Shown: piece after piece, positions 25,351 to 30,662 of the stretch
Numbering within the stretch: the stretch's first letter is position 1
Layout: each line of letters starts with the position of its first letter
Origin: a virus
DNA: 64,000 nt
Direction: 5' to 3' (one strand)
IMG/VR virus record: IMGVR_UViG_3300031555_001876
The notes under the pieces: generated by a model
The model's input: only the letters and a program-made list of their open reading frames with translations
Told to the model about the DNA's origin: nothing
The model's database searches: none
Made by a program: the position numbers and the translations under genes

Positions 25351-26310
25351 ATGGCTGATATTAAAAAGTTTTTAGACCAAGCCGGTGTGAGTACTTTATG
25401 GTCTCGCGTCGCAGAAGAATTAGCCGCAAAGCAGACTGCTATTAATAATGTAAAAAGTACTGCTGATACTAATGCTGCTGATATCATCGTTATGAAGGGT
25501 CAGATTGACGCTTTAGAAAAAGGCACTTATGATGATACTGAAGTTCGTGGCTTAATTGCTACCGCTCGACAGGCTGCTGAAGATGCTCAAGAAGATGCTG
25601 ACTTAAATACTGCTGCTATTGCTATTTTAAATGGTACTGTTGATGCTGACGGTTCTGTTGCTAAAATGGCTAAAGACGCTGCTGTTGCTGAAGTTGCTGC
25701 TGTTGTCGCAGGCGCTGACGCAAGTTTCGACACTTTAAAAGAAATCGCTGATTGGATTGCTAATGATACTACTGGCGCTGCTAGTATGGCTAACGACATC
25801 GCTGCTTTAGAAGCATTAGTTGGTGATACTGCTGTTGCTACTCAAATTAGCAATGCTATTGATGCCGCTCTGAAAGTTGAAGGCGTCGATAAGTATGCTT
25901 TAGCAAGTGATTTAAGTAGTCTGGCTAACCGCGTTAAGGCTCTTGAAGATGCCGGCCACGTAACCCAGTCTGCTATTGATGCGGCTTTAGCAACTGCTAA
26001 AACCTATGCTGAAGAAAAGGCTAGCGCTGCTCAAAGTGCTGCTGAAGCAACTGCCGCTGCTGATGCTACTTCCAAGGCTAACGCCGCTGAAGCAAACGCA
26101 AAGGCTCACGCTGATGGTTTAAATAGTGCTATGAATATTCGTGTCGCCGCTCTTGAAACCGTTGACCATAGTAAGTTTGAAACCGCTGGCGCAGGCGCCC
26201 AAGCCCTCGTTGACGCAAAGGCTTATACTGATCAGGAAGTTGCTAAAATCCAGGCATTATCCGAGGCTGAAATCCTTGCCGCTATTAACGAAGCAAGTAA
26301 CCAGGCTTAA
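25351..26310 (+). CDS. Tail fibre protein with the conserved N-terminal anchor MADIKKFLDQAGVSTLW and an Ala-rich coiled-coil shaft, 319 aa.
   Basis: ORF-track ORF; GAGAGGAAG RBS. The N-terminus is shared with the genes at 26379, 26977 and 27814. GC is above the window average. Confidence 0.6.
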   Translation: MADIKKFLDQAGVSTLWSRVAEELAAKQTAINNVKSTADTNAADIIVMKGQIDALEKGTYDDTEVRGLIATARQAAEDAQEDADLNTAAIAILNGTVDADGSVAKMAKDAAVAEVAAVVAGADASFDTLKEIADWIANDTTGAASMANDIAALEALVGDTAVATQISNAIDAALKVEGVDKYALASDLSSLANRVKALEDAGHVTQSAIDAALATAKTYAEEKASAAQSAAEATAAADATSKANAAEANAKAHADGLNSAMNIRVAALETVDHSKFETAGAGAQALVDAKAYTDQEVAKIQALSEAEILAAINEASNQA

Positions 26311-26322
26311 TTTCATTTAATA

Positions 26323-26358
26323 AAGGAAGGAAAATATTTTCCTTCCTTTATTTTTTTT
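26323..26358 (+). terminator. Rho-independent terminator.
   Basis: AAAGGAAGGAAAATATTTTCCTTCCTTT followed by ATTTTTTTT. Confidence 0.75.
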
Positions 26359-26378
26359 ATATGAAGGTGATTTAATTT

Positions 26379-26960
26379 ATGAAATTTTTAGATTAGGACG
26401 GAGTAAAAGTCTTATGGTCTCAATTGTCAATGGAAGATTATCCTAATAATGAAATGTTAGTTGCGGTTATAAATGCAATAGATTCTGAATTAAACCAAAT
26501 AAAACAAAATCCTTTACAATTAGTTTATCCAGTAGGAAGTGTTTATATATCTGTATTAGATATAAATCCTAATACTGCTTTTGGATTCGGTGAATGGGAA
26601 CAAATTAAAGATGTTTTTCTGCTTTCTGCGGGAAATATTTATAACAATGGAGAAACTGGTGGAGAGGCCGCGCACACATTGACCGTTAATGAAATGCCAT
26701 CTCATACACATAGAGGGTCTTCTGGAACTGCGGGCGCGCATTCTCATACATTAGGTACTGATATGGACGTCACATATAATGCATCAGGCAAATGCTGTTC
26801 TGTGCATAAAGATGGCGTTGATCCAAGTTTATGGAATGGTTCAACAAGTACAAATGGAGGACATACTCACACCATTAATATAGAAAATACTGGTAATAAT
26901 GTAGCACATAATAATATGCCACCTTATTTAACAGTATATATGTGGAAAAGAATAAGTTAA
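26379..26960 (+). CDS. Tail fibre protein with phage tail-collar domain (HxH...NMPPY), 193 aa, 1 in-frame TAG.
   Basis: ATG 26379 (MKFLD-TAG-DGVKVLW) after GAAGGTGA; same frame as ORF-track 26424..26960. Collar motifs GEAAHTLTVNEMPSHTHRG...HSHTL...HTHTI...NMPPYLTVYMW. Confidence 0.65.
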
Positions 26961-26976
26961 AAGGAGGAAAATCTTT

Positions 26977-27231: not shown

Positions 27232-27249
27232 TAAAGACGGTGATTAATA

Positions 27250-27789
27250 TTGTTAGTTGAAAATAATGATATTATTAAATTTGGTAATACCCCAATTAAA
27301 AAAGTTTATTTGGGAACTGAAATTGTTTATATTAAAGATCATGCTTATTTTTTTAAAAATGGCAAATATGAATTCTCTGATGGTAGTTATGTTGAAATAA
27401 CTAATGGAAATCACGTATTTTTACATTGTGTTGGTGGAAAAGGAGTATATTTTAATATATCTCACATAGACCAAAACACAATAAATTCAAAAAACTCTGA
27501 TAATGCTGATTATAAACCTTTATGGTTTACTATTCCAGCAAATTCAAAATGCACTTTATCCGTTAAAAATGTAACAAATCATATGCCTGATGCTAATTTC
27601 CGTTTAGCATTAAAAGATATATCAACTGAATTTTATATTGGCGATGATGAGGATAGACTTGGCAAAGAAATAACTTTATATCCAGAAGAAGATTTAGAAA
27701 TTGGATGTTTTTTCGCTTATATGGATAATAATATGGATGTTGAGTTTGATGTTGTTTTTATAGTAGATGAAGATGTATGGATAGGATAA
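27250..27789 (+). CDS. Hypothetical protein, 179 aa, TTG start.
   Basis: ORF-track ORF; GGTGA 8 nt upstream. Confidence 0.45.
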   Translation: MLVENNDIIKFGNTPIKKVYLGTEIVYIKDHAYFFKNGKYEFSDGSYVEITNGNHVFLHCVGGKGVYFNISHIDQNTINSKNSDNADYKPLWFTIPANSKCTLSVKNVTNHMPDANFRLALKDISTEFYIGDDEDRLGKEITLYPEEDLEIGCFFAYMDNNMDVEFDVVFIVDEDVWIG

Positions 27790-27813
27790 TAAAAATAAAG
27801 GAGGAAAACTTCT

Positions 27814-28902
27814 GTGTCTGAAACTAAAAAATATTTAGACCAAGAGGGTGTAAAAGTCCTTTGGAATTAGGTTAATTTAAATGATTATCCCAATAATGAA
27901 ACTTTAATTGCAGTTTTAAACGCAATTGATGAAACTAAACAAGATAAAAATATTATCGTTACAAAAGGCTCTGATGGATTAGCAACTCATTCTCCATCTG
28001 AAATATTAGAAGCAGTACATAATGGTATTAGTGTTTATTATACTCCAAATATAAACGCTGGAACTTTACATCCTTATTTAGAAGGCTCTAGTCAAACTTC
28101 ATATTTTCATAGTAATTATATTGATAATTCTAGAGTAGTTGCTACTGGTTTTCTAATTGATTCAAATAAAAATATTACAGTTTCCAATTTCTCTGCTTTA
28201 GATAATTATTATGATAAAACTGAAGTTGATGAATTACATACCACTCTTGAAGAATATGTTGATGATTCATTAGCAAATAATTTAGGTTTTGAAATTGAGA
28301 ATTATTTCTTTATTGTTGAAACTGAACGAATAAATGGAGTATACCATTTAAAAGATATTACTTTTGATGAAATAATTGAAAAATTTAATAATGGCGGCAA
28401 TATGGTTTGTCACGTTGATGGTACTGACTATATCCCATTATTATCAGTTACTCCAACTAAAATTATATTCTCTGGTATTTATAATACTACAAGTGTTAGT
28501 TTAGATTTTGATACTGATGGAACTGGCACTTTAACTTCTACATATTTAGCACAAAGTTCTGCTATTAAAAGTTATAATTGGGATGCGGCTTACACTCACT
28601 CTCAAAGCACGCACGCGCCTACTGATGCGCAACCTAATCAAAATGCTTTTGGAAGTATTTATTTTAATTAGAGTAGTGGAGTTACTGCTCCAAATGAAAA
28701 TAGTAGTATAGGTTTAATTCAAGGTAATGGAATAGAAATCTCTTACGAAGAAGGAAGAGATAGTGATGTTGATATTACTATCACAAATACTGGTGTAACT
28801 TCTATTCAAGGGCAAACAGGCGATATTACGTTAACTACTGAAACTTGGACTTTTACTTTGGCTGATGGAACTGTAATTACAAAGTAGGTGTTAATTGGAT
28901 GA
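27814..28902 (+). CDS. Tail fibre protein with conserved N-terminal anchor, GTG start, 3 in-frame TAG, 362 aa.
   Basis: AAAGGAGG then GTG 27814 (VSETKKYLDQEGVKVLWN-TAG-VNLNDYPNNETLIAVLNAIDETK). Same frame as ORF-track 28402..28671. TAG at 27868, 28669, 28885; TGA stop 28900. Confidence 0.6.
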
Positions 28903-30662
28903 TGAATTTTCATTCTCACGTTAGATTAATTTCAAATGGTTCTTAGGCTTTAGATACTGGAGTATATTGTACTTCAAATATGAGATGTGAAATTAAGATG
29001 GCATTTTTAACAACTCCAGTAACATCTCAATACATAGGAGCCATTGAAAAAATAGATTCAACATATTTACGCTGTCATTTTCAGGCAGGAAATTTAAATG
29101 GTAATTATGTAATAGGTTTTTGGCAAGATAGTCCAACTTTAGGCAATGCTGTTTCAATACCTTTTGATACAGAAGAGCATATTTTTACCTATTCAGCAAG
29201 TGATTTAACAGTTGGGATAGACGGAAATACCGCAACACACGGTAATACTCCTCCTCCTGAAGATTGTACTTTTTATCTTTTTGATAGAAATGTTGTTGGT
29301 TTCGAGGCTAGCAGTACTCCTTGTCATTCAGCCCTAGTTTATGCCAAATTTTGGTATGGTGATGAATTAGTTAGAAATTTAATCCCAAGAAGAAATGAAT
29401 AGGGAAAAGCAGGATTATATGATTTAGTTAATAATGAATTTCTTTTTAGTTTAACTGATTCAGATTTTGGAATAGAATATTCTAATACTTTACAATATTT
29501 TCAATTACAAGATGGTAAATATGTTATTGAACTTGAAGATGAAAATGAAATGTTTTGGTTATATCCAGCACCAACTTTAGCGCCTTCAAGTTCTTGGTAT
29601 AAAGGCAGTTTAGCAAAAAATACAATAACTTCAATTTCTATTGTTGAAGATTATCTTCCAACAGGAGAAGAAGATGAAAATTGGAATGCTGATGAAAATA
29701 ATAATGGAGATATTACTGCTTATTTAATTGGAACTGATTTAATAATGTCAATTAATGATTATCATTATTTTTACGCAAATCCAGATTCTTCTTTCGCTTT
29801 TGGAGGTAATAATAGTTCTACAAGATGGAGTAAAGTTACAAGTTTTACTGGTTTAAATAAACTTTTAACTAATAAAGTAGTTTCTATGGAAAGAATGTTT
29901 GATGGATTATTTTTATTAGAAGATATTGATGTCGGACATTTTATAACTAAAAGATGTACAACTATGGAATGTATGTTTAATAATTGTGAATTATTAAAAG
30001 AAATTGATGTTAGTAAATGGGATGTTTCTAAAGTTACTAATATGTATGCTATGTTTGCCGATTGCACTAAAATTACTAAATTAGATACTAAAAACTGGAA
30101 TCCTGTTAGTTGTTTAAATGCTAACAGTTTATGTTATGATTGTTTTGAGTTAATAGACATAGATTTAGAAAATGTTGATTGGGGAACTGCAACTAATTTT
30201 GGTATGTCATTTTATTGTTGTTATAAATTACCAGAGTTAAAATTAAAAAGAACTGGTGAAACAACTCCTTCAGTATGGCAAGCGCCTGTGAGTAGTTGTC
30301 ATTCTATAGTTAGTTTTGATGCTACTCCTATTAACACTACAGGGGTAACAGATTTATCCTATTTCTTTGAAGATGATGAAAATTTAAGAGAAGTTATTTG
30401 GCACGGATTAGATTTAACTTCTTGCTCTTCGTATTATTCTTTCTTTGCTAATTGTCCTTTACTAGAACAAATTGATTTAACTGGAATTAATACTTCTGGC
30501 ACAAAAAATAATCGAGCCTAGAATATTATTCCTACCTCTTTAGCCAATTTAGATATTTATGTTGGAACTGAAGAAGAATAGGCTTTTGTATCTACGTATT
30601 TAGCAAATGGAGCAACTAATGTAACTTATCATATAGGAGAAATAATGCCTGCATTAGAATAA
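28899..30662 (+). CDS. Tail fibre protein: shared jelly-roll-like domain at the N-terminus plus BspA-type leucine-rich repeats; 587 aa, 4 in-frame TAG.
   Basis: ATG 28899 overlaps the previous TGA (GGATGATGA). ORF-track 28980..29402 and 29550..30521 are the same frame, joined by TAG 29403 and extended through TAG 30519 and 30582 to TAA 30660. LRR pattern: F..C..L..IDV..W....NM..MF..C..L. Confidence 0.6.

Follow-up and report, generated by a model that had tools for sequence, protein, structure and literature searches.

In lambda (Stf/Tfa), Mu (S/U) and T2 (gp37/gp38), the product of a small gene, located after the fibre gene and coupled to it, acts at the fibre C-terminus. Genes for Tfa-type chaperones sit directly downstream of the fibre gene in lambda (Stf/Tfa), Mu (S/U) and P2 (H/G), and in T2-type phages gp38 remains as the adhesin. 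Receptor-binding proteins (RBPs) of Klebsiella phages join a conserved N-terminal anchor to an exchangeable distal specificity module (PMC6872550, PMC8262889), and branched multi-tailspike complexes have been described in the Ackermannviridae (CBA120 TSP1-4) and in phage G7C (gp63.1/gp66) (PMC11721090). Reassignment of TAG to glutamine (code 15) has been described in gut phages, in which late and structural genes are recoded (10.1101/2021.08.26.457843; PMC9523058). Here we analyze a fibre gene array at positions 25028-30700 of a 64,000-nucleotide stretch of viral DNA (IMG/VR record IMGVR_UViG_3300031555_001876), referred to below as the window; genes are designated by their first coordinate. 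We consider it fairly probable that the array is a multi-fibre host-adhesion set of a large, uncultured phage, in which a common docking peptide is combined with differing distal parts and with pairs of adaptor and tip proteins.

The fibre repertoire is invisible unless recoding is considered. Under the standard bacterial code, the listed open reading frames (ORFs) fragment the region, and the pieces do not match the gene starts given in an earlier model-generated reading of the letters (the original prediction). The standard-code ORFs were therefore rejected as a gene set, since they fragment genes, and replaced by calls that treat TAG as a sense codon; ribosome-binding sites and start codons of the called array genes were inspected in the DNA. 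The originally predicted frames stand as genes, but they contain in-frame TAGs that had been read through silently. Translation of the predicted fibre frames shows that every in-frame stop is TAG, that 25351 and 11269 are the only frames without one, and that a single gene in the window holds up to six. With TAG as sense, the whole window tiles into long genes, mostly on the plus strand. TAG is found in most structural-type genes and in none of the replication genes called in the window (the gyrase subunits, for example), and most other non-structural genes called there are also devoid of it. A suppressor tRNA with the anticodon CUA is located at 18826-18900 on the plus strand (ARAGORN; Rfam tRNA, 43.5 bits), within a cluster of five tRNAs called by ARAGORN. 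At four sites TAG is aligned with Q in the closest homologues or the family consensus, and at other sites with K, E or N; the position of TAG within the shared N-terminal peptide is not conserved across the relatives compared. Because in-frame TAGs, tRNA(CUA) and the alignment of TAG with Q occur together, the window is, judged from its sequence, that of a phage reassigning TAG. Glutamine is the most likely amino acid by the same alignments, and the predicted tRNA(CUA) makes the TAG-containing fibre genes translatable. Gene calls on record for Joint Genome Institute (JGI) metagenome contigs of this phage are interrupted at TAG, with fragments of 176, 89, 140 and 260 amino acids where 26379, 27814 and 28899 should stand; standard-code calling hides the fibre repertoire because the genes break at TAG. 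The tRNA cluster (17795-19349) also includes a 134-nucleotide Rfam tRNA match at 19052-19185 (42 bits, above the gathering score), which ARAGORN does not call and which could represent a tRNA containing a long insertion or intron.

Four plus-strand genes of the array, 25351, 26379, 26977 and 27814, begin with a related peptide, as originally predicted; its consensus is ..KKFLDQEGVK.LWSK.S.EDYPNNETLIAVLNAIDETKADK. All-versus-all BLASTP of the window proteins links the four N-termini at E-values of 2e-3 to 3e-17 over 18-66 residues. Forty-four homologous N-termini (three of them from the window itself, 25351 being left out) were combined into a profile, which matches the four genes at 6e-31, 4e-26, 8e-21 and 1.5e-7, and no fifth window protein reaches E <= 0.01. 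In the alignment, residues 1-20 (..IKKFLDQ.GV..LW) are common to all four proteins, and residues 21-45 (..DYPNNETLIAVLNAIDETK.DK) are restricted to 26379, 26977 and 27814. The first 20 residues are the best conserved part (FLDQ.GV..LW) and are all that 25351 carries (25351-25410, about 20 residues), while 26977 lacks seven residues, among them the DYP that is at least 90% conserved in the family. The predicted start M(A/S)(D/E)IKK... is thus only partly accurate: 26379 begins MKFLDq, without the prefix. Helical structure is predicted for its second half, NNETLIAVLNAIDETKADK, which continues into further helices. At the DNA level, 5' similarity within the array is limited to 26977 and 27814, which are 84% identical over 87 nucleotides including the ribosome-binding site, with a longest exact run of 21 nucleotides. 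The peptide has no sequence match in Pfam, NCBIfam or PDB. Its profile has zero matches in 185,579 reference genomes, which therefore offer no prophage or host clue; it identifies only 5 loci in IMG/VR and 68 in a metagenome scan.

The distal parts of the four proteins differ, as had been noted. The small conserved gene 25028 (25028-25333, plus strand, 101 amino acids) lies directly upstream; its motif GKSAYEIAV..GF.G.E.EWL is typical of tail-fibre proteins, and PHROG families for tails and tail fibres match it at E 6e-14 to 6e-5. It is followed by 25351 (25351-26310, plus strand, 319 amino acids, no TAG), an Ala-rich (27% Ala) coiled-coil fibre that we take to resemble whisker/fibritin-type proteins. 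A terminator-like plus-strand hairpin with a 15-bp stem and a subsequent T run (26319-26352) divides this conserved pair from a variable block. The first gene of the block, 26379 (26379-26960, plus strand, 193 amino acids, ATG start, ribosome-binding site AGGTGA, one TAG at codon 6), carries the full peptide (residues 1-45) and a knob of the T4 gp10 C-terminal type with HxH motifs, and appears to be a self-contained short fibre. It matches Pfam PF21939 Gp10_C at E 4e-23 (83.3 bits against a cut-off of 27, profile positions 2-139 of 139) and a PHROG tail protein at E 1e-28. The second, 26977 (26977-27231, plus strand, 84 amino acids, GTG start, TAG at codon 19), is a stub made of the peptide, a linker and a 26-residue "tail tip" motif, Pfam PF24243 Phage_tail_C (E 4.5e-9, residues 59-83). 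The four genes had been described as consecutive, but an additional gene, 27250 (27250-27789, plus strand, 179 amino acids, TTG start), stands between the stub and 27814. It has no Pfam, PHROG or NCBIfam match, and its seven homologues (164-180 amino acids) are all stand-alone. The stub and 27250 share a reading frame, with TAA TAA AGA CGG TGA between them; their interpretation as one nonsense-split gene was rejected because the 27250 homologues are stand-alone and stub-partner pairs recur elsewhere.

The longest of the peptide-bearing proteins, 27814 (27814-28902, plus strand, 362 amino acids, GTG start, three TAG), carries the full peptide at 27814-27966 and ends with the tail TETWTFTLADGTVITKqVLIG, at about 28840-28899. 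It has no family match. Predicted secondary structure comprises two small alpha/beta knobs with a helix between them, which are alike only in the predicted order of their elements; an internal repeat at the sequence level is not significant (z about 0). The stop of 27814 is overlapped by four nucleotides by the start of 28899 (28899-30662, plus strand, 587 amino acids, four TAG), a protein with a LamG-like domain at residues ~1-192 and leucine-rich repeats (LRRs) at residues 196-587. Its Pfam match is PF03382 DUF285 (E 2e-18, 66.4 bits against a cut-off of 25, residues 329-418), which we assume to be BspA-like and to belong to the LRR clan; the BspA-type LRR family proper, PF13306 LRR_5, scores 15.9 bits, below its cut-off of 27.7. 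A second hairpin, with a 14-bp stem (30668-30700, both strands, T run after the plus strand only), closes the block and is followed by a promoter-like site at 30713-30741, ahead of a conserved vault-protein-like gene. Read as terminators, the hairpins at 26319-26352 and 30668-30700 bracket the variable block.

Comparison with related phages shows that the flanking genes are kept while the cassettes between them differ. In L004, L009, L094 and no fewer than 13 additional metagenome contigs, the position of 25028 is occupied by homologues of 37-70% identity, and 25351 homologues (~29-60% identity) precede variable genes in every related locus examined. Among the contigs of at least 7 kb from the metagenome scan, at least 14 have the same order: a small 48895-like gene, a 25028-like gene, a coiled coil with the short peptide, and one to three full-peptide genes of 78-878 amino acids with differing distal parts. 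L004, L009 and L094 keep this order too, so that it is seen in at least 17 related metagenomic loci. The three full-peptide genes of the window are at the top of the range in number. In the 76.5-kb contig L004, homologues of 25028 (70%) and 25351 (54%) are followed by a 225-residue peptide-bearing protein that corresponds to 27814 residues 1-154 (77%) with a different end; farther on come a LamG gene that stands alone and three Gp10_C genes lacking the peptide. In the 202-kb contig L009, the same two conserved genes precede a peptide-plus-CotH protein (606 amino acids), a peptide-bearing protein of 416 amino acids and a vault-protein-like gene, 64% identical to the one that follows the window array. 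The gene order of L151 (Gp10_C type, stub, small partner, next peptide-bearing gene) matches that of the window. Taken as a comparison of gene content, these loci support cassette replacement in a conserved slot between the coiled-coil gene and the next conserved gene.

The peptide-bearing proteins themselves are mosaics. A search with 27814 recovered 101 proteins, 80 of which carry the peptide with 60-80% identity, and in 79 of the 80 it starts within the first 20 residues. The distal parts of the carriers form 25 full-length clusters, many with local segments in common; Pfam recognizes Gp10_C (5), YadA_head (5), GDSL/SGNH (3) and CotH (1) among them, and the rest are unmatched. Segments ~46-155, 161-254 and 328-362 of 27814 recur in homologues in varying orders and positions: in P0125 the peptide is followed by segment 118-254 and after it by segment 36-155, and P0128 and P0138 have 27814 segments at residues 343-527 and 404-504. 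A further similarity within the window concerns the N-terminus of 10212, SGVTSVNGqTGAVVI, which resembles the 27814 segment just before the C-terminal tail, TGVTSIQGQTGDITL.

The lineage is absent from the GenBank phage collection searched: neither DNA nor protein comparison finds the array, 27814 or the LamG domain there, and exact-peptide scans of IMG/VR with 27814 and 28899 returned zero matches. The only GenBank match of the lineage is to the vault-protein-like gene, in the huge-phage metagenomic records LR756500-LR756503 (38-43% identity). This gene (30777-33227, 816 amino acids), whose L009 homologue matches the Pfam major-vault-protein shoulder domain, is conserved at 49-74% in 80 IMG/VR contigs, many of them ~90-240 kb. 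As a bait for related arrays it was discarded, the array not being adjacent to the gene in the 80 IMG/VR loci.

By analogy with known anchors, the position of the peptide suggests a docking role, in which the fibre proteins are attached through it to a single kind of virion acceptor site. This reading is weakened by the lack of a solved or curated relative of the peptide, which leaves analogy as the argument for docking. The peptide might instead be a folding or trimerization nucleus or an assembly-factor tag, with the proteins attached at different sites or absent from the virion. The predicted helicity of NNETLIAVLNAIDETKADK, running into helices as in a coiled-coil initiator, would suit such a role. 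The first 20 residues, however, are the best conserved and are present even in the otherwise unrelated coiled-coil protein, and the location near residue 1 in 79 of 80 carriers is the pattern of known RBP anchor modules (PMC6872550, PMC8262889). We regard a folding or assembly role as quite improbable and favor docking.

Several peptide-bearing proteins appear to be adaptors for the product of the next gene. Stubs of 78-98 amino acids are found at the same position in L103, L104, L125 and L151, and consist of the peptide, a short linker and the C-terminal tail EEWTFTLxDGxxxTKKVxxG. Each overlaps by one base a 141-residue gene starting MF..Q....I.IPEGEV..ITD...NI.W.K. The WTFTL tail also ends P0123, P0125, P0157, P0158 and P0167, and in the four of these whose contigs were fetched the next gene begins at -1, -1, +2 and -8 nucleotides. 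Overall, the gene downstream of a WTFTL-tail adaptor lies at -8 to +2 nucleotides in nine of nine cases, whereas among peptide genes without the tail it lies at 0 nucleotides or less in 8 of 41 (median gap ~14 nucleotides). The association of the tail with a close downstream gene gives a Fisher p of 2e-4, which overstates the significance because the related contigs are not phylogenetically independent. The partners of the tail-bearing adaptors include the 141-residue family, DUF285 LRR proteins and 28899. Three of the seven 27250 homologues share the N-terminal IPEGEV..I...W motif of the 141-residue partners (E 1e-9 to 6e-6 among 1,653 sequences). We infer that the WTFTL tail holds the partner protein. 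Since stub-partner pairs recur, tail-bearing adaptors are coupled to the next gene and the order in L151 is alike, we read the stub 26977 as a minimal adaptor and not as a remnant. From gene order and these motifs, the variable block may be read as three fibre units: 26379 alone, 26977 with 27250, and 27814 with 28899.

Besides the dependence among contigs, several observations speak against this pairing. Gene overlap is common in phages anyway. The C-terminal motif of the window stub is unlike that of the WTFTL stubs, and the stub is 18 nucleotides away from 27250, which itself has no score on the partner N-terminal motif profile (it is too divergent). The region of 28899 that matches the N-terminus of partners is internal (~196), which is awkward if a free N-terminus is needed. 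Position directly downstream of a fibre gene and translational coupling to it are also the classical place of Tfa, so that 27250, the 141-residue family and 28899 might be assembly chaperones of the Tfa or gp38 type acting on the fibre C-terminus, and not virion tips. The 78-98-residue stubs argue otherwise: they hold only peptide, linker and tail, and a partner that is solely a chaperone would leave the pair without a binding domain. The partners moreover include LRR and LamG proteins of 390-587 amino acids, which are adhesin-type folds, and neither 27250 nor 28899 matches a chaperone family in Pfam or PHROG. A chaperone role is in our view unlikely, and we retain the interpretation of the downstream products as tips.

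The 28899 protein provides a concrete shuffling event. The partners encoded after P0125 and P0167 (L170 and L171) are DUF285 LRR proteins; the first is 75% identical to 28899 residues 196-582 and the second 70% identical to residues 198-322. Both are without LamG and start where the LamG domain of 28899 ends. Because relatives encode the LRR part alone, starting at the end of LamG, 28899 is demonstrably, by alignment with them, an in-frame fusion of LamG onto the N-terminus of a partner-type LRR protein.

The original prediction recognized a shared domain, which it guessed to be jelly-roll-like, in 11269, 15648 and 28899. Both the sharing and the fold are borne out. The LamG-like domain is C-terminal in 11269 (gene 11269-12546; domain at 11992-12543, plus strand, profile E 8e-72), where it follows DUF6273 (residues 56-230, Pfam). 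It is also C-terminal in 15648 (gene 15648-17711, with CBM4_9, an ALK/LTK glycine-rich region and LamG; domain at 17169-17696, plus strand, E 1e-58). In 28899 it is N-terminal (28899-29474, plus strand, E 5e-14) and precedes DUF285, also as predicted. BLASTP aligns 11269 residues 248-422 with 15648 residues 517-683 (33% identity, E 2e-17) and 11269 with 28899 residues 12-190 (25% identity, E 4.5e-5). The profile was made of 66 sequences without 28899 and 15648, and both were still found. By contrast, 14854, proposed as a further carrier by motif, was rejected: its profile E-value is 1.1 and BLAST gave no match. Structure prediction yields a confident globular model (pLDDT, the predicted local distance difference test, of 93.8), a jelly-roll beta-sandwich superposable on LamG/pentraxin domains. 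In this model the fold is of the LamG/ConA-like lectin type and, by analogy with such lectins, the domain is a probable glycan binder. No Pfam, NCBIfam or PDB match to curated sequence families such as Laminin_G_3 was found at E <= 0.1 to 1, and the family has its own motifs: YIESTGTQYIDTG, LYSCQIYDNG.LVRDFVP and GLYD...FY.N.GTG.F.

The family is very large. A word-indexed search with the domain gave 669 matches, mostly ~200-residue stand-alone proteins, and an exhaustive profile search gave 30,379 clusters (50% identity) at E <= 1e-3. The top-scoring proteins (P0222-P0371) contain 2-14 tandem copies in 405 to 7,647 amino acids. The two stand-alone members that were inspected are surrounded by phage structural genes, and such members occupy distal tail regions of prophages: one is located after Baseplate_J and gp48, beside DUF6273 genes, and the other in a block downstream of capsid genes. 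The closest entries of a predicted viral structure library are uncharacterized gut-metagenome phage proteins, including glycine-rich-domain-plus-LamG and GDSL-plus-LamG architectures. The possibility that the segments shared by the array and the jelly-roll proteins are low-complexity or chance similarities is negligible, given the significant pairwise and profile E-values, the hundreds to tens of thousands of homologues with conserved non-repetitive motifs, and the confident globular model of LamG; the segments are homologous, as the original prediction held.

Two elements of the predicted architecture require revision. The envisaged design of a shared N-terminal anchor, variable middle and C-terminal jelly-roll does not exist, because the two module systems occupy disjoint sets of proteins: the peptide occurs in 25351, 26379, 26977 and 27814, the jelly-roll in 11269, 15648 and 28899, and zero proteins hold both. 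The array was also suggested to be a recombining receptor-binding repertoire. Homologous modules, cassettes that vary among relatives and the 28899 fusion agree with a repertoire assembled by recombination, but they do not show recombination to be ongoing. The three LamG copies in the window are 20-33% identical, which indicates old domain shuffling rather than a currently recombining set, and DNA-level similarity at the 5' end is limited to 26977 and 27814. Identity is 99.85-100% for six further contigs of this phage, which come from several JGI samples and therefore show no sign of ongoing exchange.

Placement of the apparatus on the tail is less certain. It comes only from the family names of two proteins, 26379 and 25028. 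No baseplate, sheath, tube or tape-measure gene was recognized in the window, and the PHROG matched by the DUF6273 part of 11269 carries the label Hoc-like head decoration; both points count against a tail location. They would fit an alternative in which the proteins are capsid or neck fibres or decoration, Hoc-like or fibritin-like, and not tail RBPs, as would the match of 14087 to a head-and-packaging "virion structural protein" PHROG and the likeness of the Ala-rich coiled coil to whisker or fibritin-type proteins. Against this alternative stand the strong tail-family match and gp10 C-terminal domain of 26379, the tail-fibre PHROG matches of 25028, and the occurrence of stand-alone LamG members downstream of Baseplate_J and gp48 in prophages. 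A head or neck location is doubtful on balance, and we infer that the apparatus belongs to the tail.

We propose the following arrangement. The shared peptide would dock each of four kinds of fibre onto one kind of acceptor on the virion. The first kind would be the conserved Ala-rich coiled coil 25351, with only the first 20 residues of the peptide, and the second the self-contained short fibre 26379 with its gp10-C-type knob. The third would combine the minimal adaptor 26977 with the separately encoded 179-residue tip 27250. In the fourth, the longer adaptor 27814 would hold, by its C-terminal WTFTLxDG..TK.V..G, the product of the overlapping gene 28899, an LRR protein that has gained an N-terminal LamG lectin-type domain; the same type of domain is fused to other adhesin-like proteins 11-17 kb upstream. 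Diversity could arise by cassette replacement and domain fusion, and the LamG, LRR and gp10-C-type domains, to judge by fold and family type, may contact host surface structures and bind receptors. A more tentative extension, possible but not favored, is a plug-and-play system of two levels. The ~45-residue peptide would mount any fibre on one acceptor, and a ~20-residue C-terminal socket would hold separate tips non-covalently, with the LamG module drawn from a very large phage and prophage family of glycan binders (>30,000 clusters) that is missing from curated databases. If this is true, a phage could alter its host range by exchanging one small downstream gene or, as in 28899, by adding a lectin domain to it through fusion.

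Little of the host-recognition machinery of large, uncultured gut-type phages is annotated. The locus offers three reusable blocks with defined boundaries, none of which matches an entry in Pfam, NCBIfam or PDB. They are the peptide at the N-terminus, the adaptor tail at the C-terminus together with the N-terminal motif of its partner, and the LamG-like family of >30,000 clusters. These could allow recognition of receptor-binding genes in the clade and the design of chimeric fibres.

Other structural-type genes of the window display related features. The 8334 and 10212 genes (8334-11267) have a common ~45-residue motif, G(L/I/F)VPAP..GDE.K(Y/L)L.GDGTW, present twice in 8334 (E 1e-10 to 9e-12). 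Three fibre-like genes, 14087-14839 and, on the minus strand, 20966-21880 and 21899-24706, share the C-terminal motif LW(I/V).T....G.GxL.Y.....W......W (E 3e-4 to 1e-3); the latter two are located on the opposite strand between the two fibre clusters. The genes 506-3394 (962 amino acids, with a CotH-like C-terminal part) and 4419-7016 (865 amino acids) correspond to a single ORF of 1,587 amino acids in L090 (206-4969). A GIY-YIG endonuclease gene (3532-4287; Pfam 26.8 bits, cut-off 22.6) lies between them. The arrangement suggests that a homing endonuclease has inserted into a large structural gene and split it; no group I intron was found with Rfam. Interspersed among conserved genes are three paralogues, 33281-34123, 35650-36402 and 38086-38859, with 36-40% identity to one another (E 1e-23 to 2e-49). 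Many relatives have them as well; one of the three matches DUF2726 below threshold, and they may be mobile endonuclease-like genes. The gene 19435-20733 encodes a 432-residue protein with a signal-peptide-like N-terminus, and the identical gene of the same phage at JGI has a precomputed Pfam SLH match. Together with a choline-binding protein in the relative L007 and with DUF285, it hints at a Gram-positive (Firmicute) host. From the SLH, DUF285 and choline-binding domains in the window or its relatives, the host is probably a Gram-positive anaerobe (Firmicute).

The array thus resembles several described systems and departs from each. As a modular RBP array, it has more than two fibre genes with a common N-terminal module and unrelated distal parts (three with the full 45 residues, one with 20), and the distal modules vary among related phages while anchor and flanking genes are conserved. 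It shares with the Klebsiella RBP systems the presence of several RBP-like genes per phage, a conserved N-terminal module with unrelated distal parts, different distal cassettes in the same locus of relatives, and enzymes (SGNH, CotH) among the distal domains of relatives. It differs in that the anchor is 20-45 residues long and unrelated in sequence to anchors of the T7 gp17 or T4 gp10 type, in that the host is probably not an enterobacterium, and in that the genes need TAG read-through. As in the Ackermannviridae and G7C, several different fibres or spikes would be mounted together, with one protein serving as an adaptor for a neighbor-encoded one. T4 gp10-like N-terminal XD branching domains, however, were not found in Pfam and PHROG scans of the array proteins, Gp10_C is here the distal knob of 26379 and not a branching platform, and the proposed contact between adaptor and partner is a C-terminal tail motif of ~20 residues. 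The Tfa/gp38 pairs similarly consist of a fibre gene and a tightly coupled gene, but they share no sequence similarity with the genes described here, whose upstream "fibre" can be as small as 78-98 amino acids and whose partners range from 141 amino acids to the 587-residue LamG-LRR protein. Among LamG/pentraxin/ConA-like lectins, including CBM40 and the LamG-like proteins of uncultured Caudovirales, the family described here is distinguished by its lack of a sequence-level match, its own motifs, its very large size, and its many members that are ~200-residue stand-alone proteins or tandem arrays. With code-15 phages the window shares the suppressor tRNA(CUA) and the distribution of TAG, in most structural-type genes and in none of the replication genes called; it differs in that its lineage has no entry in the GenBank phage collection searched. 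By these comparisons, with no gp10-like branching domains, T7 gp17-like anchors or relative of the peptide, the array is outside the known families. Its design is familiar, that of modular, horizontally exchanged RBPs with N-terminal anchors and adaptor-and-tip pairs, and its modular evolution is of a kind well known from other phage RBPs.

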